In this document: piece by piece, positions 2,400 to 57,600 of the stretch
How the letters are laid out: every line of letters begins with the position of its first letter
How positions within the stretch are numbered: position 1 is the stretch's first letter
Source: Eledone cirrhosa
Taxonomy: Eukaryota
Assembly (NCBI GenBank): GCA_964016885.1
Contig: OZ024743.1
Span: forward strand, 348,068,001 to 348,132,000
DNA: 64,000 bases
Direction: 5' to 3'
Position numbers and translations under genes: made by a program
The notes under the pieces: model-generated
Seen by the model: the letters and a program-made list of their open reading frames with translations, nothing else
Databases searched by the model: none
What the model was told of the DNA's origin: nothing

Positions 2400-4499
2400 G
2401 TCCCTTCGGCTGGTCGTCGGCTCTTCTGTGAGTATATCCGAGTATACTCTTCGGTTGTGTGTCCCTCCTAGGTCCCTGAATCAGCAACTGCGTTGGGGAA
2501 TTTCATTTTAATGTTTGTGTATTGTTTCTGTGATATTCTTACCAGTCTTATGTTCGTTGGTGTTTTGATTGGTGCTGGTATTATGTAGTCGTGCTGTGAA
2601 ATATCTGTGAGTTCAATTATGTAAGTCATTAGTTTCTTGTTGCGTGTATTTATTGCTGTGCATTCTTTTTCTAGGGGTGGGGTGTGTTTCTGCTATTTTC
2701 TTGTCGTTGTTACTGGGTGTGTGTGTTTTGTTGTTGTGTTTGCGATGTTGGTGCTTGTATTGGTGTTGTTGAAGGTGTCGTTGTTGTTGGCGGTGGGGTT
2801 GCCGCCGGTGGTGATGGTAGTGCTAGTGTGGCTGGTGATAGTGTTGGTGGTGATGCTGCTGTAAATCTCTTTGCAGTAGCCTTCACCCTTTTTTCATTTC
2901 TTCCCTCCCTTTTCGAAGGCGACGATGCGCTGTTTCTGCGTCTGTGCCTTGTTGCCACCTTTTGCCATCCCTCTCCCACCTCACACTCCATGTCCGATTC
3001 TGTGAGGTCGGGGAGAGGTACCAGCTCCACTCTTTCACTTGTTCTTGTTGGTGATTGTTGCAGTGGAGTCTCTGTTGCAGCTGCAGTTGGTATTGCTGTT
3101 GTTGTGGTTAATACTTACACTGCTGCTGCTGTTCTTGATTTCCGTGGCGTGGGTATGGGTATCACGAACCTATCCTTCCTGTTTGCCGCCTGTCCTGTTG
3201 CTGGTATCAGTGAAGCCGGTTTTCGAAGGAGGGGGGTTTTCTCCTTTCTCAGGGTCTTCTCATTGCAGAAGGCCCTGAGCTGAGTGTTTGACCCACAACG
3301 AAAGCATTTGGGGCGTTTGCCCTCAACACTTATGGGAAGTTGAGTGCCGTTATCGAAGTCTTTCACATCCGGGATAGCTTCCATGCTTTCCTGGTTGGTT
3401 TGAATTAACATCTCAATGGAGGCGCCGACCCAATCTTCTCGTACTTTTTTCTGTACTTGCAGTACGGTTGTTTTGTCCTCGATTCCGACGAGGTCAGACG
3501 CGGCCAGCCAAGAAGGGGCCATCCCGGGGGGGGGGGGACTTGGGTCAGTCTGACCCTCACAATGTTTTGCCCGCAGTAGGGGGGCACCAACACCATTTCC
3601 TCGCTCCTTAGGGTTACTAAGGATTGAGCCTTTGCCTCCTGGGGTGTGGCAAAAAGCACGTCCACGGTGGCATATTTCTTGCCTCGGGTGATATGCGTTT
3701 TCCGCTGCCACACAGACCCTAAGGATTTTTGTATTTGAGTCTCTGTGTCTCTTTCAACCCTACGCGATTTTGTGCTTTCTGTACGGTACGTGACCGTACA
3801 GTACTGTTGGGTTTCCAAAAATTCTTCGGCTGCCTTGCTGATTGCTCGGTGTCCGGTTTTCGTCACCATCTTCCTTGCATCCTGTAATTCCTCATTTGTT
3901 ATAAGGATGGTTTCCAGATTCTTTGCGATACTTGCAAACGAGATTGGTTTTTCTTTCTTGTTGTTTTCGTCAGAGCTGCTGTTACTTTTGTTGTTGCTGC
4001 TGGTACTAAGACCACCGCCGCCGCCGTTGTTGTTGTTGTTGTTGCTGCTGTTGCCTCTGCTGCTGCTGCTGGTGGTGTTGTTGCTGTTGTTTCTGCTGCT
4101 GTTGTTGTTTATGCTGCTGCTGATGTTGTTGCGGCTGCTACTAGTATTTTCCTCGCCACTCTTGCTGCTGCTGCTGTTATTACGGCTGCTGCTGCTGCTA
4201 TTCTTCATGACGTCAGACGAATGAAATGGCTTTCCATATTTATCGCACACATCTTTCGTTGTTGTCGTCGTCGTGGAGAAATGTTCCACGGTACGCCTGT
4301 TCTCTTGATGAAGAACGCTACGAGAAACTACATTTTTCTTTTTCTTTAATGGCGTCGCTTGCAAAAGAGGTGACAGTGGCGACACCACATTTAGAGAAGG
4401 GAGGGAGAGAGACAATCTTTTCTCTGACGTAATGACGATTGGGGAAGAAGAAGACGGAAGGAGTGGGAGTGACTTGTGAAAATTCTTTTTTTTAGCCAT
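2400..4499 (-). pseudogene. Tx1-like ORF1 (gag-like, zinc knuckle), frameshifted
   Basis: The frame switches at the poly-G run ~3526-3538 (QVPPPPG to MAPSWLAAS); the paralog at ~10700 reads QVPPDVPIPWLAAS without a shift. Further stop near 3115; the 3' boundary is approximate. Confidence 0.75.
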
Positions 4500-4714
4500 G
4501 TTTTTTTTACGGTTTAAAATGAACATTGGGCACAAATACCCAATAACTGGTTATTTAATCCCGAAGGGCCAAATAACGGGCAGAAAGACCCCCCTCACGA
4601 GGAGGAGGGTGTCTTTATCTACAATTTGGTTCAAGTTTTAAACAATTTACAATTGTCATAACCGTTAAAATTACAATACCTTACAGAGCCGAGCCTCCGT
4701 CAACCATGGCATTC

Positions 4715-5999: not shown

Positions 6000-8900
6000 T
6001 TATGTGTGTCCGTATACAGCGTGGTGATAATGCCACACAAGGGCCAAGTGGGATGGCGGATCCACAGATGGCTATGTAAACATACATTCGCCAATCCTCG
6101 ATAAGAGTGTTTAAATATCGAACATAAACAGTTCGAATAACGGTGAAATGGAGACTAGAACGTCATGTGACAGACTCTCACCCAACAGGTGCCCCCTGGC
6201 TCAGCAGCAGGAACCTGACTGTCAACGAAATACTGCTGATGTTGGAGGAAGAAGAAGAAGGAAAGGGGCCAGAACCAACTGGACGAAAGAATTGAATAGA
6301 ACTGTTATGCAATGCTACCTGAAAAGTAACCCCAAGGAGAGGGGCTACAGGAGACGGATGCATAACATCTGGAACGAGATTGGTTTATTTAAATTAGATG
6401 AACAAAAATTGGCCGGGCAGGCTCGGGTAATAAGAACTAATGGGTGGATAAGCGAGCTGGAACTGGAGGAACTGAGCAGAGAGAATGGCTTGGAGATGGC
6501 GGGTGTAGTATGCCAGACAAGCGAGCCGGCGGGAAATGAAGGTGAGGAGGTCCTGAGAGCGGAGGAACCACCCGAAGCAGACAATGATCTGAATACTGAG
6601 ATAAATAATACCTGGAACAGAGATACGGCCACTGAGGAGATGAATGCTGACGGGCTAGGACAAGATTCGGTTGACATCCTAAATTTAGTGGTAGATGAGT
6701 TGAACAATGATAGTGGGAGACCTATGAACCTAAGATTTGTAGACAGGAAAAAGTTAAAAGAAACAACAGCTAAGGTAAACAAAGTCATCCCATACCTTGA
6801 GGCGAGGAGTCTTCACCAGTGCAACAATGTCCTCAAAGCAACAGCAAATACGGTGAGGAAACTACTTGGTATAAAAGCGAGAGGAAACAACAGACAAGAA
6901 AGAGCAGAGCCGTGGTGGAAGAAGCGACTGAGTGGGCAAATCGGGGAAATGAGAAATGACATAGGAAAGCTTGAGTCACTACTGAATGGGACACTAAAAA
7001 ACATAGGCACTAAAAATAGACTGGAAATAAAATACAAAACTAGGAGTAAAAAGCTAAATATTATCATAGAGGAATTGAAGCAACGCATTGTAGCAAAGAG
7101 TGCCAAAATCAGGCGATACGAGAACAGAGTCAGTCAGTATAAACAGAACCGCATGTTCGACAACAACCAGAAGATGCTGTTTGGACAGCTTGAGGGGAAA
7201 GAAAGAGGCACCGACTTGATCCCTGGGGCGGAACAAGCTAAAACATTCTGGAGAGGAATATGGGAGCAGGATGTTAGACACAATGCCCAGGCAGGGTGGA
7301 TTGAGACAGTACAGAGGGAGATCGGTGAGCAGGCACAGCAACAGACTGATTTGAGTATCACAGTTGAAACTCTTAAGGGGCAAGCCAAAAAACTAACCAA
7401 CTGGAAATCACCAGGCCCAGATGGTGTGCAGGGGTATTGGATTAAACATTTAACATCCCTCCACCCGAAGCTGACGGCCATGTTCAATGACTGCTTGGTG
7501 TCGGGTGAGGTGCCAGAGTGGTTGACAAAAGGTACCACAGTTCTGATAATGAAAGACCGAATCAAGGGTAATGATGTTACCAACTATAGACCTATCACAT
7601 GTCTGCCCGTAATGTGGAAACTGTTGACGAGCATTGTGTCTGAGGAAATCTACCATCACCTCCACACAAACAACTTGTTGCCGGACGAACAGAAAGGATG
7701 CCGAAAGAAGTCACGTGGTACAAAGGACCAGTTGCTTATTGATAAGATGGTAATGGGGAATTGCAGGAGGAGACACACTGATCTTGCCATGGGATGGATG
7801 GACTACAGAAAGGCATTTGACATGGTGCCTCATTCCTGGATCACCAAAAGCCTGGAGATCTTCAGGGTGGCAGATAACATCAGACAGTTGCTGGGCAGGA
7901 GTATGGGGTCCTGGGAGACAGAGTTGACATCAACTGGAGTATCCTTGGGAAGCGTGAAGATCAAGAGAGGTATCTTCCAGGGAGATAGCCTGTCCCCTCT
8001 GTTGTTTGTCCTTGCCCTGATGCCCTTGACCATTATGCTGCGAAAAGTGAGAGCAGGATACAAGTTGGGAAGGGGAGAGCTTACCATCAATCACCTCCTC
8101 TTCATGGACGATCTTAAGCTCTTCGGGAAAAGTGAGAAGGAGTTGGATGTGCTTGTTGACACTGTCCGTATTTTCAGCAGTGATATATGTATGCAGTTTG
8201 GTGTTGGTAAATGTGGAGTCATTGTGATGAGGAGGGGTAGGTTGAGCAGAAGTAACGGGATCCAGATACCAACAGGTGAGATGATAAAGGAAATTGACTC
8301 TGAGGAAGGATACAAGTATTTGGGCGTTCTGGAGGCTGATGGCATAAAGAACAAAAAAATGAAGGAATTGTTAAGAACTGAATACATTCGGAGAGTAAGG
8401 AGCGTATTGAAGTCACATCTGAACAGCAGAAATGCCATAAGCGCAGTAAATTCCCGAGCTGTGTCTATTATTAGGTACAGTGCGGGAATTCTGAGATGGA
8501 ATGTTGCTGAACAAAAAGAAATGGATAGGAAGACTAGGAAGCTATTGACTATCTACAACATGTTCCACAAGAGGAGTGATGTCGATAGACTCTACCTAAG
8601 GAGATCTGAGGGTGGAAGAGGTCTTATCAGCATAGAGGACTGTGTTCGGATGGAGAAAAACAACCTATACAAATACGTGACCTATAGTAAGGAGCCAATG
8701 CTCAGAGCTGTACTGAAGGAGGGGACAGTAGGCCAGGGGATACCCAAGGAGGAAATAACATCAAGGAGGAAGAGCAGCCTTAAGGGAAAATCCCTTCATA
8801 GTACCTACCTTCTTTGAGAAAACTGAATTTAGAGATCCACAGACATGGAACTGGTTGAGAAGAGGAGACCTCAAAAAGGCTACAGAAGGAATGCTAATGG

Positions 8901-9663
8901 CTGCGCAGGAGCAGGCCCTCAAAACGAAGTGGTTGAAGCACCATATCTACAAGGAGGAGGCTAGCCCACTGTGCAGGATCTGTGGAGAGAGAGAGGAGAC
9001 TGTGGCTCACATTGTGTCCGAGTGTAAACACCTAGCCCAGACCCACTATAAGGGCTGGAGACACGATGTGATGGGCAGGGTGATCCACTGGCACCTGTGC
9101 AAAGTAAACAATCTACCACATTCTGAGAAATGGTATGAGCATAGGCCAGAGGCGGTGATGGAGAACAGTCAGGTGAAGGTGCTGTGGGATTTTAGGATAC
9201 AGACGGACAAAAAACTGGAACACAATAGACCTGACCTGGTGGTTGTGGACAAAGAAAAAAGATCGTGCCTGATTGTGGATGTGGCCTGCCCGTTCGACAC
9301 GAGAGTGCAAGAGAAGGAGAGGGAGAAAATTAACCGATACCAGGACCTAAAGTGGGAGGTGAAAAGGATTTGGAACTGCCATGAAGTCAAAGTGATCCCG
9401 ATTGTCATAGGCGCACTGGGGACTATCTCCAAAGGTTTCCAGGGATGGTTAAAGAAAATCGGCCCCTTCACGCTTTTTGGAACGCTTCAAAAGGCATGCT
9501 TGCTTGGAACGGCAAGAACCCTCCGATACGTCCTGAATATCTGAGGCTGCAGGTAGTGGCTTGATATTCAATCCAACGGACTTTCCAGTTAACCAACATC
9601 AATGACTGAGATTCAAGGAATAACAATAACAATAATAATAACAATAATAATAATAATAATAAT
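6000..9663 (+). mobile_element. R4/Dong-like non-LTR retrotransposon (RT + CCHC + restriction-like endonuclease), near full length
   Basis: RT motifs KSPGPDG, YRPITCL, DYRKAFD, IFQGDSLSP, LFMDD, YKYLG; CRIC-x8-H-x4-C; RHD; RPDLVVVD...IVDVACPFD...KINRY. Short 3'UTR and (AAT)n/(AACAAT) tail at 9619-9663. The 5' boundary is approximate. Confidence 0.92.
6148..9544 (+). pseudogene. RT-RLE polyprotein interrupted by one frameshift
   Basis: ORFs 6148-8817 and 8855-9544 join in frame (LHSTFFEKTEFRDPQTWNWLRRGDL) if one copy of the tacc duplication at 8802-8809 is removed. Confidence 0.88.
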
Positions 9664-20116: not shown

Positions 20117-22268
20117 AGAAAAGATGAATATAAAATGAAAGTGCTTTTATAAAGGAATTTATTAGGTACTGACATATGTTTCTGTAACAGACGGAGTACC
20201 TATGTATCGCTGCCTGCTTAATCATATAATGTTAGCAAGTATTTGATATAACTATGGGTTCCAATGATTCTGCGGAAGTAACTGATCTTGTGGGAATTTG
20301 TATCACCCACAGACTACAAGGAAAATTCAAGGATCTCCACGGTGGACTCTACCGTGACGATGCGCTCCTATTAGTTAAGAATATGAATAACCAGAATTTA
20401 GAAAGGATGCGTAAAAACATTAGAAAGCTTTTTAAGGAACTAGGATTAAATATTACGTTTGAATATAACCCCAAAGAGGTTAATTTTCTTGATGTTACTT
20501 TGAATCTCAATGCAGAAACGATTAAACTGTTCCATAAACTAAATGAGAACCTTAAATATGTAAATACGGGTTCTAACCATCCACTCTCTATAATTAAATC
20601 ATCACTAGAAATATTTCCCTTAGAATCTCCCGCCTGTCTTCCAACCACCAAACCTTCAAAGAACATGCCGAATATTATGATGATGCACTTAGGAAGGCTG
20701 GACACCTAGATAATATAGAGTATATAGTCGACGATCACCAAAACACCCAAAATAAATCTCATAGAGGTAGAAATAGCATAGAATCACCACCATACATACA
20801 CTACCGCAATAGACACACTAATAGTCGCACACCACCAAACAGAAGGCGATGTAAAGAGTATATATGGTACAACCCGGTCTATACCAACTCTATTAAAACC
20901 AATCTACCCTCACAATTCTTTCGATTAGTTAAAAAACATTTTCCAACATCACATAAATATAATAAAATCTTAAACCCCAACACTTTTAGACTTTCATATT
21001 CAATCGCCCTTAATATTGAACAACATATAAAAAAGCTTAACGCAAAACGGTTGTATAAACGCCTTCCAACACATAACAATACACGTAAAACATCGGCTAT
21101 AACATCACAAAACAACAAACAACATCCCGTCCTGCCTAAGCAACCTCATCAACCCATCTATGCCAATACAACAACGCATAATTATAACTGTAACTGTGTC
21201 CAACCAGGAATGTGTCCGTTGAACAATCAGAGTCTTGAACGCAACATCATATACAAATGTACTACCGAATCGGGTAGCCAGAAGTGGTACTATGTGGGGT
21301 CTACAGCTACCTCCTCCAAATCTCGCCTTTATACACATCGTTACTCGATAAAACATGAAAACCAGCGTTATGTAACAACACTCGCAGACAAGGCTTGACA
21401 ACTGCGCGAAAATAACGAACAATTTAACCTAAAATGGGATATAATAGTGTACCCATGCCTATTTCCAAGTACAGGAATTTTGTCAATTGTGTAATATAGA
21501 AATATTTTGTATTATGAAATCCAAAAATATTTTATTAAATAACAGAATAGAGCGATCGTTATACTGTAACCATCGCTTGAAATCTACATTTTCATATTAC
21601 AAACTCTACCAGGATTGAACGCCTGTCTCCATCTCCGTTTGATTTTCAAAATACAAATTAACATTCTCTATTAGTCTTAATTCTATCAACTCTTCTATTC
21701 TTTACCATTTAATATAAACTGCTATAGATAAAATGAGATTTCTTAATTCAATTCCCTAATACATATACCAGCGTGATACCAGCATTGTTGTTATGCAGTA
21801 GCAGTGAAAATCTCTCTCTTCCTTACCTAACACTTTATATCTGTATTAATACTAGTACACCAAACGACCAGCCCTGTCTATTATTCAATTGGTCAAATAT
21901 AGATTAAAATAAGCACTCCCAAAAATTCTTATTTAAATAAAATAAACCATATACTCATTGTATTCTTATTAAAAACTTTCTATATACATGTTTAACAGAA
22001 AATTGAATTGCCATCTGTCATATACTAGCCCTTCTCTTCTTCCTTTCTTACAACTAATATAAATACTTTGATTTTTCTGATTTTTTCCAATTTATCCAAT
22101 ATCTCTGAAGAAGTGACAACTGATTATACATTTGCTATCGAATACTTGCTAATATTATATGATTACGCAATCAGCGGTACATAGGTATTCCGTCTGTTAC
22201 AGAAACATATGTCAATACCAAATAAATTCCTTTATAAAAACACTTTCATTTTATATTCATCTTTTCTC
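20117..22268 (+). mobile_element. 5'-truncated Penelope-like element (GLYRDD-type RT + GIY-YIG) with inverted terminal pLTR piece
   Basis: MGSNDSAEVTDLVG...GLYRDD...NFLDVTLNL...SNHP; CNC..CPL, NIIYKC...YYVGST...RLYTH. 20117-20248 is the reverse complement of 22137-22268. Confidence 0.88.
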
Positions 22269-31988: not shown

Positions 31989-35355
<3,367 letters not shown>

Positions 35356-35595: not shown

Positions 35596-36717
35596 ACAGG
35601 GAGAAAGAGACAATTATTAGGAAGAAAAATATATTTTTTCCTTTTTTGTTTCTCTCTCGCTTTTTTCTGGGTAAGAAAATGATTAAAACGAAATGTTTTA
35701 CTTTGTGTGAAGTGTTAAGATATTTGTTGATTTATTTATTATTTAACAATGGCATTTATTTATCTATTTATATATTTAATTATTGTCTATTACCGGTTTC
35801 AGCATGTTTATGCATTATCAAATGATGGTGAAATGTATTAGTGTGGTGTCGTACATGTTAAACAGAAAGTGCAGAAAGAATAATGTTATTTACAAACAAG
35901 GTTTATGAAGAGAAAAGAAAAAAGAAAAAGGAAAAAAAAGTGCATAACATTGAGCATAAAAGTCAATGTGGAAGAACAAATAATGTTATTTACAAGCATA
36001 GTCATTGAAGTTATATATATATACATACTTATATATTTATACACATATGGGTGGGTGCGGGCGTGTGTATGTGTGTGTTTTTGTGCGTGTCTTTGTGTAT
36101 GAGTGTGTGTCTGTGAGTGTGCGTGCGTGTGTATACGTATATAAGAGCAGACACCAAATCTAATTGTTGAAAGATAGAAAACTGGAAAAGGGATGGATTT
36201 TCATGAAAATATGATTAGTTGTAAAAGGAAAATATGAATTATAGAAAATTAGAGTAAAGTGAGAAACATATAATTTGATTGCTGTATGGAAGGCCGGATT
36301 TGTTTAAAAGTAGGTATAAGCTCTCATTAATAATACATATTTCTAATACTGTTATAAATAAACATCATTTGTAAATGGATAATTAGTGTGTCCATATATA
36401 AATACGTATACCTACATATATATATATATATATATACATACATACACACATATAAGCTTATATACATATATATATATATATATTTAAAAACACACAGATA
36501 CATGCGGACACACACATATATACATGAATGCATCCGCACCCAACTGTGAGTTAAGGGTGCCAACTTCACCGATGTTGCTCAATGAATGACTGGGACAGAC
36601 CAATTCAGTTTGAACCAGACTGAACCAGTATCAGAGTTAAAAATACATTATGAAGAGAGAAGAAACATTTAGATATAATTAGTAATAAAATGTATCATAC
36701 CTAAACTGTTCCTAAAT

Positions 36718-36805
36718 TCCTCGACTACGTAGTTTCGTGGCATAAACAAAAACAATATATCAAAGATATAGAGTCCTTGCGAGGTCTGCCAACTTATCAA
36801 GAGGA
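36718..36805 (-). ncRNA. Type I hammerhead, U3-A8 core variant (unit 1)
   Basis: tcctc TTGATAA g(t)tggca...tgccac GAAA ctacgtag TC gagga. Confidence 0.8.
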
Positions 36806-37308
36806 TACCTCATTTTACTAGTCTCAAGAACGCGTCTACACGACGTGAGAAAGAATCCCAAAAGGCGGAGGGGGAGATAGTCACGCGATATAACGGTCGA
36901 GAAACAGAGCTAAGCCTCTTATAACCACGAAGAAAATACCACGGAGGCGGAGGGGGTATTCATATCGAGGCCGTAGAAGAGGTAGTGAAGAAGGCGAGAA
37001 GTATGAGTAATGGAAGCTTTCCAGTTGTCCCCACACTTCAAAGATTGCTCGACCAGAGGGAGTTATTAATATATTTAAAAACACACAGATACATGCGGAC
37101 ACACACATATATACATGAATGCATCCGCACCCAACTGTGAGTTAAGGGTGCCAACTTCACCGATGTTGCTCAATGAATGACTGGGACAGACCAATTCAGT
37201 TTGAACCAGACTGAACCAGTATCAGAGTTAAAAATACATTATGAAGAGAGAAGAAACATTTAGATATAATTAGTAATAAAATGTATCATACCTAAACTGT
37301 TCCTAAAT

Positions 37309-37396
37309 TCCTCGACTACGTAGTTTCGTGGCATAAACAAAAACAATATATCAAAGATATAGAGTCCTTGCGAGGTCTGCCAACTTATCAAGAGGA
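37309..37396 (-). ncRNA. Type I hammerhead, U3-A8 core variant (unit 2)
   Basis: Same motif at +591. Confidence 0.8.
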
Positions 37397-37899
37397 TACC
37401 TCATTTTACTAGTCTCAAGAACGCGTCTACACGACGTGAGAAAGAATCCCAAAAGGCGGAGGGGGAGATAGTCACGCGATATAACGGTCGAGAAACAGAG
37501 CTAAGCCTCTTATAACCACGAAGAAAATACCACGGAGGCGGAGGGGGTATTCATATCGAGGCCGTAGAAGAGGTAGTGAAGAAGGCGAGAAGTATGAGTA
37601 ATGGAAGCTTTCCAGTTGTCCCCACACTTCAAAGATTGCTCGACCAGAGGGAGTTATTAATATATTTAAAAACACACAGATACATGCGGACACACACATA
37701 TATACATGAATGCATCCGCACCCAACTGTGAGTTAAGGGTGCCAACTTCACCGATGTTGCTCAATGAATGACTGGGACAGACCAATTCAGTTTGAACCAG
37801 ACTGAACCAGTATCAGAGTTAAAAATACATTATGAAGAGAGAAGAAACATTTAGATATAATTAGTAATAAAATGTATCATACCTAAACTGTTCCTAAAT

Positions 37900-37987
37900 T
37901 CCTCGACTACGTAGTTTCGTGGCATAAACAAAAACAATATATCAAAGATATAGAGTCCTTGCGAGGTCTGCCAACTTATCAAGAGGA
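37900..37987 (-). ncRNA. Type I hammerhead, U3-A8 core variant (unit 3)
   Basis: Same motif at +1182. Confidence 0.8.
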
Positions 37988-38270
37988 TACCTCATTTTAC
38001 TAGTCTCAAGAACGCGTCTACACGACGTGAGAAAGAATCCCAAAAGGCGGAGGGGGAGATAGTCACGCGATATAACGGTCGAGAAACAGAGCTAAGCCTC
38101 TTATAACCACGAAGAAAATACCACGGAGGCGGAGGGGGTATTCATATCGAGGCCGTAGAAGAGGTAGTGAAGAAGGCGAGAAGTATGAGTAATGGAAGCT
38201 TTCCAGTTGTCCCCACACTTCAAAGATTGCTCGACCAGAGGGAGTTATTAATATATTTAAAAACACACAG

Positions 38271-38298
<28 letters not shown>

Positions 38299-38305
<7 letters not shown>

Positions 38306-40054
38306 CAAATAACGAAACGAAATTAAATTTCGTTTCGTTTGTAACTCACTTTTGTATGACTGACGCTTAAACAATTAAGTTAAAGATGTACATCCATATA
38401 TGTATACTGAAATACTAGTATGTATATGAATACACACACGTATACATATGTAGGTGTACCAAGTTTTTTCACTGGTCACTTTACTGTGAGTGGCCAGCTA
38501 TTCTGTATGTAAACACACAGACAAACCGGTTTTTAGAGTCATACTGGTTTTTGAGGAAACACCTCTCCTCTATTCTTCAGAAAGCCAGACAAGGAATATT
38601 GAACTAGTTTCGTTGTTGTTACAACTCATCAGCAATATTTACCTATCTTCCGGCCTCTCTAGAGAATCGTAAAAGCACATATCGTTATATGCTTTTTCTA
38701 TGAAAATTAGTAGTGGGCAGACTAATTTGCATAGAGTGTGAGTAAGTACCGGTTCAACGGAGACGATAAAAACAAATAACGAAACGAAATTAAATTTCGT
38801 TTCGTTTGTAACTCACTTTTGTATGACTGACGCTTAAACAATTAAGTTAAAGATGTACATCCATATATGTATACTGAAATACTAGTATGTATATGAATAC
38901 ACACACGTATACATATGTAGGTGTACCAAGTTTTTTCACTGGTAACTTTACTGTGAGTGGCCAGCTATTCTGTATGTAAACACACAGACAAACCGGTTTT
39001 TAGAGTCATACTGGTTTTTGAGGAAACACCTCTCCTCTATTCTCCAGAAAGCCAGACAAGGAATATTGAACTAGTTTCGTTGTTGTTACAACTCATCAGC
39101 AATATTTACCTATCTTCCGGCCTCTCTAGAGAATCGTAAAAGCACATATCGTTATATGCTTTTTCTATGAAAATTAGTAGTGGGCAGACTAATTTGCATA
39201 GAGTGTGAGTAAGTACCGGTTCAACGGAGACGATAAAAACAAATAACGAAACGAAATTAAGTTTCGTTTCGTTTGTAACTCACTTTTGTATGACTGACGC
39301 TTAAACAATTAAGTTAAAGATGTACATCCATATATGTATACTGAAATACTAGTATGTATATGAATACACACACGTATACATATGTAGGTGTACCAAGTTT
39401 TTTCACTGGTCACTTTACTGTGAGTGGCCAGCTATTCTGTATGTAAACACACAGACAAACCGGTTTTTAGAGTCATACTGGTTTTTGAGGAAACACCTCT
39501 CCTCTATTCTTCAGAAAGCCAGACAAGGAATATTGAACTAGTTTCGTTGTTGTTACAACTCATCAGCAATATTTACCTATCTTCCGGCCTCTCTAGAGAA
39601 TCGTAAAAGCACATATCGTTATATGCTTTTTCTATGAAAATTAGTAGTGGGCAGACTAATTTGCATAGAGTGTGAGTAAGTACCGGTTCAACGGAGACGA
39701 TAAAAACAAATAACGAAACGAAATTAAATTTCGTTTCGTTTGTAACTCACTTTTGTATGACTGACGCTTAAACAATTAAGTTAAAGATGTACATCCATAT
39801 ATGTATACTGAAATACTAGTATGTATATGAATACACACACGTATACATATGTAGGTGTACCAAGTTTTTTCACTGGTCACTTTACTGTGAGTGGCCAGCT
39901 ATTCTGTATGTAAACACACAGACAAACTGGTTTTTAGAGTCATACTGGTTTTTGAGGAAACACCTCTCCTCTATTCTCCAGAAAGCCAGACAAGGAATAT
40001 TGAACTAGTTTCGTTGTTGTTACAACTCATCAGCAATATTTACCTATCTTCCGG
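38299..40054 (-). repeat. Tandem array, 467-bp unit x~3.75, left arm; retrozyme-like
   Basis: Units start at 38299, 38766, 39233 and 39700, with a few SNPs between them. Confidence 0.93.
38595..38639 (-). ncRNA. Minimal type I hammerhead (467 unit); repeated at 39062-39106, 39529-39573, 39996-40040
   Basis: aatattg CTGATGA gttgt-aaca-acaac GAAA ctag TT caatatt: 7-bp stem I, 5-bp stem II, palindromic stem III, GUU cleavage triplet. Confidence 0.92.
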
Positions 40055-40056
40055 CA

Positions 40057-41709: not shown

Positions 41710-43385
41710 GAGTTGGGAGAGGGAGGTGGGGGTCCGAGCAGGGAGGGCTGACGTTGGTGTTTGTGTATGTGTGTAGGTGTAGGTGTGTGTGTGTGTGTGT
41801 GCGCGTGTGTATGTGAATGTGAGAGTTGGGGAAGAACGAGGTTCTATGTTCAGGATAAGTTGTGTGCGTGCATGTAGATGGAGAGGTGGCAGATGTCAGT
41901 ATTGTTAGTTGTGGGGTGGGCCAAGAAGGGTGGGGCGGTGAAAAGGAGGAGTGTGTTAGTGGTGTTAGTGGGGGATGTGTGGGGGGAAAGCTGGGCGGTC
42001 GAAGGCTAAATGAATAGGGGTTGGGAGTTCAGGCCGGTGGGTGTGTGGGTCTGTAGAGTGAAGATGGTGTGTTGTCCGACCGTGAGGCGGGTAGCGGGTG
42101 TTCCATGGCATTGGAGTAGGCCACAGACTGTGAGGTGGTGGCGGAATGTCTAGGGGAGCCAAAGTGGCGGGTGATGGGGGAACTCCCGCCGAGACGAATA
42201 TCCCGGAGGTGTTCAGTGAAACGATCTGCCAGGCGACGTCCAGTCTGTCCGAGGTAGGTTGCGCTGCACTCCGTGCAGCGATTTCCATAGACTAGGTTGG
42301 AGGTGGTGCAGCGAAGACGTGCCGGACAGAGCGAGAGTGGCTGTTTGGACCCTGGAAGGTGGTGGTATTGGTAATGTGGGGGCAGGTGTGGCAGCAAGGC
42401 CTGGAGTAGGAAAGGGAACCGGGGGATGAAGAAGAGCGTGGGTTCCGGTGTGGGGTGCTGCGGACGGGGAGGGTCCGGAGATTGCGTGTGCGTTTCAAGG
42501 AGGAGAGGGGTGGGGATCAGAAGATAGGGGAGGTAGAGTGGTCGACTGAAGGTGTCGGAAGAGGCAGAGGATGGTGCGGTGGATGGGTGGTAGTTGATGG
42601 GGAAGGGGAGACGGTGAGTGGGTGTGCGGTGGCGTGGGGCGAGGGTGGTGGAGCGGTGGACAGACCGGCGCGAGTGAGGGAGGTGTGGACGAGGGAGGAG
42701 GGTAACCTCTCCGGATGAAATGGCTGACTAGGGAAAGTGCCTGGGACTCAAAGTAAGCATCTCGGCTGCAGAGGCGGCGGATCCCGAGGAGTTGGGAGTA
42801 GGGAATAGAGTGTTTAGTGTGTGTAGGGTGGGAAGAGGTGAAGTCGAGGTAGGAGTGGGAGTCGGTGTGGTTGAAGAAGGCGGAGGTGACGAGTGAGCAG
42901 TGGGAGGAGTCGAGATGGCGACGGAGATGTCCAAGAAGTGGACGTGGGTGATGGAGATAGAGGTGGTGAAGTGGAGGGAGGGGTGGAAGGTGCAGAAGAA
43001 CGAGAGAAAGGAGTCGAGCTGTTCTCGGGTGTGGGTCGTGGCCCAAATACAGTCGTCGATGTAACGACCGTACAGTTCAGACGTGGGGCCGGTGTAACGA
43101 GCAAAGATTTGGGCCTCAACATGACCAACGAAAAGGTTGGCATAGTTTGGGCCCATTCTTGTGCCTATGGCTACCCCCGTGACCTGTTGGTAAAACTCAC
43201 CCGAGAAGCAGAAGCAGTTGAGGGTAAGGACCAGCTCGGCGAAGCGAAAGAAGGTGGGGGTGGATGCGATGGGGGAGGGGCGAAGATCGAAGTAGTTCCG
43301 GAGGGCACGTAGGCCGTCGACGTGGGGGATGACAGTATAGAGGGACTTGATATCTAGGGTGGTAACAAACTTTCCACCAAACGGC
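41710..43385 (-). mobile_element. 5'-truncated Penelope-like element, Neptune-like (RT + GIY-YIG), frameshifted
   Basis: TLDIKSLYTVIPH, YQQVTGVAIGTRMGPNYANLFVG, RYIDD, FLDI, SSHPTHTKHSIPYSQLL; CTTSNLVY..C..C..YLGQTGRRLADRFTEH. Confidence 0.9.
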
Positions 43386-43669
43386 TGGACCAAACAGCAC
43401 TAAATTTGCACCACAGATGTAACTTTTTCCAAGTAAAATAGTGGGGGTATTTTTGTCTACTGAATTTTGTTAAAAGTTTAAAGACATTATTTAAATATTC
43501 ACTTCTTTAACATTTCAAATGTCAACACTTCCGGTTATACGTGATACATCACTTTTTCTTATGACGTCGCACAACATTCCCCTCTTTTTCTTAGTCTAAC
43601 TTTTAGATAGATACATATCGCCCTTATAATATGTCTCTGTACGTGTGGATGTCTGCATTAGATAAGGTT

Positions 43670-54680: not shown

Positions 54681-57600
54681 ATACTCTGGGAGGGTCATGT
54701 TGCCAATAAGAAACACACGCACCAGTTGCTTCCACTTCAATTTATTATAATACATTTATAAATTTCAGGTTGGTTGCTGGGTTCCACAACCAGATGGTTG
54801 TTTATATATTGTCAAAGTTCATTCGTCACACATTATGTGACCTCTTCAGTGACTGGGGATTCTTTTCTTTGTTTTTGTGCCTCTCCTTTGTTCTTTCCTA
54901 CGCCATCTTTTTTCTGTGTCTGTATTATGTGCTCAGTCTGCGCATGCGCCACATCCGGGTGTCTGTGTGTGTTTATATTCGTTTATTTATTTCTTTATTT
55001 ACATGTTACAGGTTGGTTGTTTGTTCTATGTGCGTGTGTGTTTTCATTTTGTCCTTAATTGTAAGTTGTGATGTTGCTGTTCCACTCATGTTTTCTATTT
55101 AATTTTGGTTCTAATTCTTTTATGTTTATTGCCTCTGTGATTTCTCTAAACATTGCGTCTTTTCTGTGTGTAGATTCTATTTTTATTTCTATGTTCTCTA
55201 ATTTACCCTTATGTTCTATTTTAACATGTTGGTAGAGTACAGATGATTCTTTACTATCTTGAAGGTCTCGCCAGTGTTCATTTATCCGTTCCCCTACACT
55301 ACGAGCTGTCTCACCTATGTACACTATATTTTTGTCTTTACATTGTCCTTCAGTAAATCTTATGCTATATACTACATTTCTAGTTTTACAGTTAATATGG
55401 GGGGCTTAATTTCCAGGTTATACATTTCTTATCTATACAGGCGAGTCTTTGAAAACGGTATGTCTTGCTGATAAGTGTTTTTATGGAGGTACCTGGTCTT
55501 TCTACTATCTTAATATTGAGTTTATGTTTATCTAGGGCCCTTCTAAATGTGTAAGCTAATTCACCTCTCGGGTTTGTATCGATGAACATTACACTCTGGT
55601 ATTTATTGCTATCATACCATGAGTTTATTCTATAAGCCTTATTCCTAGTTCTTTCTATTCTATTCCAAAATTAGCTCCTATAAAAGGGGCAGGTCCCATC
55701 TTTGTCATTATTTACCATTTTTTCGCATTTGGTTCTGGCTCCTCTATACACTCTGACTTTTTGTCTCTGATTGTAACCAGAGAACTGCATACGGTGGATG
55801 AAGTGTTGTATGTGTCTCTCTAGTTCTTCGAAGTTGCACATGCGGTACACGTTTCTCATCACCCGTAACAAATCCGCAATCAGTATGTTGATTTTGGTAT
55901 GGTCCGAAACAGCTGAGTTTCGGTGGATCAGATATTTGGAAGTCATGGGTTTGGCATAATGGGAATGGAGGATTCGTTTTTTGTTATTAATTGTATCTAA
56001 CCAGAGCTCTGTGTATAGTACAGGTAATCGATGGTTGGGGTGTTTGCTTGGGTAGTCTATAGTAACTCTAATACTCTGGTGGATGAAATTAGCTATTTGC
56101 TGGATGCTTTCCATTGTGTTTTTCTCTAATTCCTGACTGTTCTCTAGTGGGGGTATTTTAACTACGATGTTTATATCATCAACGTAGCGGGAGTACATTA
56201 TCAGGGTTAAGGGGGCTTCTAATTGTTCTTTAAGTTTAAGTTTAAGTCTACTGTCCCACCATACCATGAATAAGTTAGCTATGTCGCCTGCAATGCTAAC
56301 ACCAATGGCTGCTCCCTCCTTTGGGCATATGTTTTTACATTAAATTTGAACATATGTTCCTTAAGGGTTAATTTTATGCTGGCCCCACCGCATGTGCAAT
56401 CATTTTCTCTAGTTCATCGTAGTTTTCGGGGGTCCGTATGGCTCTGGTCCACCCGTTCCATCTATCTGTATGGGTTTTCTTGGCCATTGAGTGCTAAGGT
56501 CATATGTGTCTAGATAATGATTACTATAGGTAAGTTTAAGTAGGAGTCCCAGCTCACTGGTATCAATCCCACGGAACTCAACATTGCTCTCACTGATCAT
56601 TTCTACGCATTTCTCCCCAGCAAAATCCACGTCAATAGATGGATACAGGGACACAACATCCATACTACCTATTATGCAGTTTGTTAGGTCCCTAGATCGG
56701 TTACTCTCGCCGATTCTGCTGAGGAGGTCCTCCGTGCTGTCACATACATCTGGGGACATTTCAATGATGGGTCGTATGATCAGGGAGAGGAAGTGGGACA
56801 ATCTGTAGTTACTAGCAATGTTAGCTCCACTGACTGGCCGTGTTGGTGGTCCCGTGACAGGGCCACTGCCCGTTTTATGGTATTTTCGAAGCTCATACAA
56901 CACTGGCACGTCATTGTTCCAGGCCTTTTGTTGGGCTGCATTATATATGTCCACATCACCATATGGGCATTGAGGGCTTTTTCTCTATCCTCATGCTCTT
57001 GTGGTGTTACTTCTCTTGTGTTAGTGATGTGGGGTTGCATTGCCTGGATGTAGTTTTGACAGACTGTCAACCGATATTCTGCCAGACTTGTCTGTTGGAA
57101 AGCATGATATCTTTCCATTACGCGAGCGTTGCATGAGCTTACGCAAGCCATTTTGCAGATTTTTCTCCCAGTTGCTGGGCCTCCATTCTATTATGCTTCT
57201 TGCTATACTGTTCTATAATATTGCTAAGTTTAGATCTAGCTATACTAAATTGTGCTTCTGTTTGTTCATCGATCTGCGACGGCAATTGCGTGCATTTGTT
57301 AAAAGCTAAAGTCGTGGCGTGGACTCGTCGCAGGTCAAACGACTTATCGGAGGGATTATAAAAAGTAGAGATCCAGGCTGCTGCTTTATGATAGTAAAGA
57401 ATCATCTGTACTCTACCAACATGCTAAAATAGAACATAAGGGTAAATTAGAGAACATAAAAATAAAAATAGAATCTACACACAGAAAAGACGCAATGTTT
57501 AGACAAATCACAGAGGCAATAAACATACAAGAATTAGAACCAAAATTAAATAGAAAACATGAGTGGAACAGCAACATCACAACTTACAATTAAGGACAAA

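Follow-up and report, generated by a model that had tools for sequence, protein, structure and literature searches.

The 591-bp array and its hammerhead motif

The window, the 64-kb stretch of Eledone cirrhosa DNA analyzed here, carries on its minus strand an insertion of 3.04 head-to-tail 591-bp units at positions 36478–38276. Self-comparison revealed perfect period-591 identity over this interval, with 0 mismatches at 1,208 compared positions, which bears out the tandem array of the preliminary description; as assembled, the array consists of three full units and approximately 26 nt. It is 5'-truncated at 38276, and its 3' end (36478) coincides with a fixed site termed site B below. A TA-rich microsatellite (36394–36483) lies at the 3' junction, and a (TA)n tract (38271–38301), common to this array and a neighboring 467-bp array, lies at the 5' junction. 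Because (TA)n flanks the insertion on both sides, a target-site duplication, which in non-LTR retrozymes is longer than 4 bp where one occurs, cannot be read. The unit is non-coding, the longest stop-to-stop frame among the six being 86 residues.

On the minus strand, each unit contains UCCUC-UUGAUAA, a helix II closed by G10.1-C11.1, GAAA, the palindrome CUACGUAG, GUC, and GAGGA. The three type I hammerhead copies occupy 37900–37987, 37309–37396, and 36718–36805, with TTGATAA cores beginning at 37982, 37391, and 36800, respectively (U3 to A9: 37982–37976, 37391–37385, and 36800–36794). The core elements of a type I hammerhead were all present, namely a 3-8 Watson–Crick pair (as U3-A8), G12-A13-A14, A15.1-U16.1, and H17. 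The UUGAUAA core, the 5-bp stem I, stem II, and the palindromic stem III described earlier were thus found intact in every unit. Cleavage is predicted after 37314 in the middle copy and, by the period, after 37905 and 36723 in the others; the last position agrees with the GUC cut proposed previously, being 37314 minus one period. Two full monomers lie between the predicted cuts, at 37314–37904 (the predicted 591-nt circular RNA) and 36723–37313, both on the minus strand. A sequence scan detected hammerheads on only one strand of the unit.

Two details of stem II needed revision. The unpaired base noted previously is present, but it is the second U (37382 in the middle copy) and lies inside helix II, as the bulge is a C in the larger subfamilies. 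Likewise, the long stretch described as a stem II insert exists, but it is a conserved extension of helix II whose 13 pairs are all standard in 9/9 aligned rows. Across nine aligned copies, 99.3% of 303 cells in the three helices around the core were paired, a value of little information since most of these pairs are invariant and the structure was drawn from the same sequences. A search of Rfam at the gathering score returned no match anywhere in the window; as the canonical hammerheads of the 467-bp repeat were missed as well, the miss is not specific to U3-A8.

Furthermore, the circular sense monomer was predicted to fold at −173 kcal/mol (z −7.0), compared with a z of −1.1 for the antisense (40 shuffles each). 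Among 12 aligned monomers, most changes keep pairing, and 11/159 pairs showed two-sided change (covariation term −6.85), a count inflated by sequence kinship and G-U wobble. The ACCUC of the helix II internal loop was the same in all subfamilies compared and can pair with a conserved UGAGGU directly 5' of stem I. In the window, these strands correspond to 37371–37376 and 37398–37403 (minus strand). We infer that they may form a 6-bp pseudoknot of the kind described in PMC3088659. A single two-sided change was found in this pseudoknot, in one old copy whose sibling copy lacks it, and the strand 5' of stem I is alternatively predicted to sequester stem I. In a nearest-neighbor model, in which pseudoknots and dimers are not scorable, the active fold lay 4.6 kcal/mol above the minimum with a weak helix III, and stem I was almost never formed when at least 30 upstream bases were included. 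As the model favors inactive folds, activity would need the pseudoknot or a dimer, which a palindromic helix III permits (PMC4209133). The predicted inactive folds are a real uncertainty regarding the activity of this hammerhead; the available text of PMC7151607 gives no rate for a U3-A8 pair.

The dispersed family and its U3-A8 core

An exact 20-mer over the core occurred 766 times in the 3.0-Gb genome, with 0 occurrences of the reversed control. Allowing two mismatches gave 7,742 occurrences (control 0), and a relaxed family motif gave 7,203 (control 5). A DNA search returned 164 matches, 40 of 494 candidates having been scored, in which the full-length matches were 99–100% identical and came from many contigs, where similar arrays were found. 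Natural monomers and subfamilies were approximately 73–100% identical to the window unit (lowest, 73.5%). The copies are dispersed, with fixed 3' ends, variable 5' ends, and no terminal-repeat layout. The family is unrelated in sequence to the 467-bp array (best blastn E between units, 1.4), in line with the earlier suggestion of a second retrozyme-like family. Its unit, previously called unusually long, does exceed the usual 150–450 bp (PMC7229834) but falls inside the 51–972 bp reported in bioRxiv 10.64898/2026.07.22.740005.

Conservation of the ribozyme was evaluated column by column, with at least eight copies and 70% agreement per column and two duplicate loci left out. Lineage-level change was seen in 1/50 ribozyme columns, the bulge, versus 103/472 columns elsewhere (Fisher p 0.0003). 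Old copies, approximately 25% diverged and chosen by the downstream segment rather than by the 5' half of the ribozyme, kept TTGATAA in 32/33 readable cores. The same motif was read in 161/161 family copies from fresh regions, which had been chosen by that motif. We read this conservation as selection on the ribozyme.

Breaks of the 3-8 pair were then counted. The nine matches of a U3C search comprised eight family copies in eight insertions and one unrelated sequence, and the sibling retained U3 in 6/6 insertions with a visible sibling. A search for A8 changes gave 17 matches, namely 15 family copies in 13 insertions and two unrelated sequences. Of ten such insertions with a sibling, A8 was kept in the sibling in 8/10 and the change was present in both copies in 2/10, so that either copying sometimes went ahead despite a broken core or the copies were later homogenized. 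Single 3-8 breaks are scattered and rare and have founded no lineages. C3-G8 relatives with the flanks of the family numbered 0, with one unrelated example among nine matches, in a search that reached family-like flanks only. Homologs, to which the preliminary description had looked for covariation at positions 3 and 8, exist in thousands, but the pair is invariant at the lineage level. Covariation within the family is therefore not demonstrable, as the pair never varies by lineage and no C3-G8 homolog was found.

The rarity previously attributed to U3-A8 does not hold for this genome, where the pair is common and is used by a Penelope family and several other hammerhead families. A general U3-A8 pattern, after removal of the 591-bp family, gave 7,101 matches including double counts, against a high reversed control of 2,795. 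The first 100 listed matches belonged mostly to a few families with paired stems, among them a tandem repeat of 316 bp and a Penelope-like element that carries the motif in its terminal repeat. U3-A8 is already published as an active natural covariant (PMC3088659, PMC4209133), and approximately 1,300 U3-A8 motifs are reported from Schistosoma, where the pair is known from Penelope-like elements (PMC4209133). U3-A8 can thus be the norm for whole families, and searches with CUGANGA alone undercount them.

The 316-bp family (L132–L143, G000:C1:6519942–6521557; L150/L151) has a U3-A8 hammerhead, TA ends, and inverted pairs, and is a candidate second U3-A8 retrozyme on the basis of these features. 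Another U3-A8 hammerhead family (L146, L149, L178, and L179) has a longer helix II followed by AATAAA; it shows two TA-ended termini approximately 108 nt apart, and no Penelope frame was seen in it.

Insertion ends and unit variants

The family has two 3' end sites, 164 nt apart: A at +80 and B at about +244, counted from the predicted cut. TA nearly always follows them, and the 5' ends vary. In the window array, site A lies at 37234 (minus strand), with repeats at 36643 and 37825, and is an end used by other insertions of the family. A fresh set comprised 69 regions of a single contig, selected through the hammerhead motif, and held 39 tail-out inverted pairs, of which 35 joined an A end and a B end (AB), none was AA or BB, and four were unclassified. 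Unpaired arms in this set ended at A in 14 cases, at B in 19, and elsewhere in two. An earlier set of 68 regions, part of which was biased towards B, contained 51 pairs, comprising 41 AB (one of them a local duplicate), 2 BB, 0 AA, and 8 unclassified.

Arms stop approximately once per 740 nt, and the longest in the fresh set measure 2,900 nt; across both sets, arms of four to seven units exist. Seven 5' ends were observed at the predicted cut site against 5.1 expected in the fresh set. The lack of an excess means that the genome holds no direct trace of cleavage, and that cDNAs cross the cut site without extra stops, as they would on a ligated circle. The earlier set, which was partly biased, had hinted at a pile-up of 5' ends just after the cut, but the fresh set did not reproduce it (p 0.26); another at +331–360 (12 versus 5.0) was not significant over 20 bins. 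Both arms exceeded one unit in 8/35 AB pairs. Just 25/35 pairs were nested, so fold-back of one cDNA was rejected as the rule for inversions. In a minority, 6/35, the junctions were near-palindromic, the arms starting at most 15 nt apart in the unit (permutation p 0.005; L282, L285, L287, L294, and two others), which suggests fold-back or hairpin-guided joining in these cases.

Units were compared in the 17 fresh regions with at least two full monomers (55 monomers). Substitutions between full units amounted to 0.77 within regions versus 6.97 between regions. Seventeen variants, private among the 69 sampled regions out of thousands, were common to all units of their region and were distributed over 9/17 multi-unit regions, and in L230, L253, and L290 such variants spanned both inverted arms. 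A further 22 private variants were confined to one unit. The simplest account of a new variant fixed in every unit is that the sequence passed through a monomer stage, involving two cuts, ligation, and rolling-circle copying. On sequence grounds, the pattern points to each insertion having been copied from one circular monomer template; homogeneous source arrays outside the sample, gene conversion, or DNA circles are possible causes of the shared variants.

Candidate partners and a proposed route of copying

Penelope-type elements of the same genome were surveyed as candidate partners. In the U3-A8 Penelope family, eight of the nine longest copies, taken from 131 scored matches, had frames of 852–979 residues, and these eight were 96.7–99.1% identical in DNA. 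They carried DKT in 7/8, RWK in 5/8, and a CxCX5C-type linker in 8/8, with U3-A8 hammerheads in their terminal repeats, (TA)n targets, and, by motif reading, a putative C-terminal GIY-YIG-type nuclease. The Hydra clade is defined by those motifs and by TA targeting in PMC8557442, and by this motif description the long-frame family is of Hydra type. Its ends lie approximately 61 and 221 nt past the hammerhead, and 8/8 inverted copies had one short and one long end. The spacing of approximately 160 nt is nearer to the 164 nt of the retrozyme than are the spacings at two other Penelope-type ends, approximately 108 and 75 nt. CTCT(G/A) occurs 7–9 nt past end A in the retrozyme and three Penelope-type ends, a likeness noticed after the fact; in three of the four elements, its predicted pairing partner is a GAG(C) farther downstream. 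The copies of the long-frame family are less alike than the youngest retrozyme copies, and the exact partner may therefore be another lineage.

A sequence link between the retrozyme and Penelope terminal repeats was not significant, either for the U3-A8 Penelope family, against whose ends 35–123 of 200 shuffles scored as high as the retrozyme 3' region, or for the Penelope family of the window itself. Scores against a third end and two other tandem families were marginal (3–76 of 200 shuffles).

The window contains a broken Penelope-like frame with DKT and CxCX5C motifs at 33296–35101 (minus strand). Its family has many copies, approximately 91% alike in protein, and two 3' ends approximately 75 nt apart in TA; a sequence scan of its terminal repeat found no intact hammerhead. 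Broken frames at 20236–21398 (plus), 42029–43399 (minus), and 55671–56984 (minus) may derive from Penelope-type RT/GIY-YIG elements, which they resemble by eye; one fragment from these three had no Pfam hit. Overall, Pfam gave no real hit on five Penelope-like fragments.

The shape of the insertions suggests that a Penelope-type retrotransposon resident in this genome probably made them from a small RNA circle. We consider it likely that the 591-bp array arose as a single recent insertion of the dispersed family, which is non-coding and conserves the U3-A8 hammerhead motif, and that the family is a non-LTR retrozyme whose RNA would cut itself into 591-nt monomers and circularize, to be copied into (TA)n by a Hydra-type Penelope element. 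By this route, a tandem locus would be transcribed through two hammerheads and the U3-A8 core would cleave after GUC, probably aided by dimer pairing of the helix III palindrome and by the 6-bp pseudoknot proposed above. A host ligase would then close the monomer, and the fold of the circle would sequester stem I. The Penelope endonuclease would open a (TA)n tract, and its two DNA ends would serve as primers on a single circle, at the UA-like sites A (+80) and B (+244). Rolling-circle cDNAs would end at variable positions; two of them joined head to head would give an inverted insertion, and one joined to the TA flank a direct insertion, as in the window array. A bolder reading, to which we give somewhat less than an even chance, is that every inverted insertion preserves the trace of two primings, at both fixed sites (164 nt from each other) of a single circular RNA monomer that a pseudoknotted U3-A8 hammerhead had cut. 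The retrozyme would then mimic the two-site 3' geometry of a Hydra-type Penelope element.

Other explanations were weighed against this retrozyme reading. In one, a short Penelope-dependent retroelement would spread from long uncleaved read-through transcripts or circular DNA monomers, its hammerhead being slow or a protein-binding structure and its arrays being homogeneous by inheritance or gene conversion. The lack of an excess of 5' ends at the cut site, the weak predicted active fold, and the two insertions with a broken 3-8 pair in both copies would fit such an element, as would two reports, of poor in vitro cleavage by minimal Penelope hammerheads (PMC4209133) and of no cleavage in 8/9 tested Xenopus retrozymes (bioRxiv 10.64898/2026.07.22.740005). 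Yet the catalytic core bases are kept across approximately 25% divergence, private variants are common to both inverted arms, and with one stop per approximately 740 nt such arrays would shrink at each round, whereas arms of four to seven units exist. We therefore regard this explanation as unlikely.

Replication of the 591-nt circle from RNA to RNA, in the manner of a viroid, with genomic arrays as reverse-transcribed snapshots, is less probable still. It would account for the many insertions with their own haplotype and for the pair-preserving changes throughout the fold (covariation term and two-sided pairs given above), and RNA–RNA replication has been suggested for mussel retrozymes (PMC7229834). 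However, hammerheads occur on one strand only and the antisense folds no better than shuffles, 766 copies sharing one 20-mer and young units 99–100% identical represent low diversity for an RNA replicon, and the haplotypes could simply come from the thousands of source loci in the genome. The identity of the three local copies could also reflect a local duplication, a satellite, or an assembly artefact with a decayed hammerhead. We give this almost no credence: the family is dispersed in thousands of copies, which form short arrays whose ends are fixed, and the copy counts (766; 7,203) together with the conserved core refute it for the family. Mis-assembly, raised earlier as a possible source of the repeat, is thereby excluded.

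By the features that can be read from sequence, the family is a variant non-LTR retrozyme, and it can be set beside several known systems. Like the non-LTR retrozymes of coral, mussel, and axolotl (PMC7229834; bioRxiv 10.64898/2026.07.22.740005), it has tandem non-coding units with one type I hammerhead each, a palindromic helix III, a strongly self-paired predicted circle, and co-occurring Penelope-like elements. It differs from these animal elements in having a U3-A8 core, a 591-nt unit (against the usual 150–450 bp), a long helix II with a bulge, a predicted pseudoknot that would replace the usual loop contacts, and TA targeting with two fixed ends; moreover, its ribozyme is predicted to be blocked in the circle, whereas that of most animal retrozyme circles is predicted to be free. 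The U3-A8 covariant is shared with the Cercyon Penelope-like hammerheads of Schistosoma (PMC4209133) and other natural cores (PMC3088659), but the Schistosoma motifs are minimal, heterogeneous, and mostly single, whereas the 591-bp family has a full helix III and young tandem arrays. With Hydra-clade Penelope-like elements (PMC8557442), it shares (TA)n targets, 5' truncation, tandem and inverted insertions, a one-sided extension ("tail"), and hammerheads near the 3' end. Unlike them, it has no open frame, its tail is 164 nt rather than 30–40 bp (PMC8557442), and its 3' region lacks significant similarity to the local Penelope ends tested. The predicted Watson–Crick pairing of a stem II loop with a strand beside stem I matches pseudoknot-stabilized hammerheads (PMC3088659); unlike those pseudoknots, that of the 591-bp family is only predicted, is without useful covariation, and arises from an internal loop of a long helix II.

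The U3-A8 core has been published and the unit length has precedents; of greater interest is the insertion signature. Penelope-like elements have been proposed to mobilize animal retrozymes because the two co-occur and have similar terminal repeats, and the published accounts leave both this mechanism and the source of the Penelope tail unsettled (PMC7229834; PMC8557442; bioRxiv 10.64898/2026.07.22.740005). Our literature search, a weak negative that covered few subscription papers, found no tandem U3-A8 retrozyme and no one-of-each end rule. If the proposed route is true, the one-sided tail of Penelope elements would be explained as two RNA priming sites, genome sequence alone would show animal retrozymes moving by rolling-circle reverse transcription with Penelope machinery, and a layer of U3-A8 retrozymes would have been missed by CUGANGA searches. 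A very young retrozyme, long-frame candidate partners, and a common two-end rule make these questions of mechanism testable.

At least half of the words of the 591-bp unit were also found in public sequencing runs X1–X14 (14 rows, 10 studies, and 11 organism labels), where the plain reading is trace host material or cross-contamination. None of the 24 runs listed is on record as RNA, and the four looked at in detail (X1, X15, X19, and X22) carry no weight here for expression or host range. Run X1 yielded one 621-nt contig closing on the 591 period at a depth of 7.8, which fits an array or a circle. Runs X15 and X19 contained partial low-depth pieces of the unit, and X22 contained five spurious TA/CA-rich reads.

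Elsewhere in the window, the 467-bp tandem repeat, with a canonical CUGAUGA type I hammerhead, forms an inverted insertion (38299–40055, minus; 40056 to about 41400, plus) that meets the 591-bp array at one TA tract; another copy of this repeat, in L174, ends at two sites approximately 68 nt apart. A 900-residue RT frame followed by a 261-residue frame lies at 6115–9544 (plus); the pair resembles a non-LTR retrotransposon. Finally, a block of more than 1 kb at 357–2467 and 3115–4550 is repeated 2,758 bp apart with identical translations, as a local duplication or an assembly repeat.
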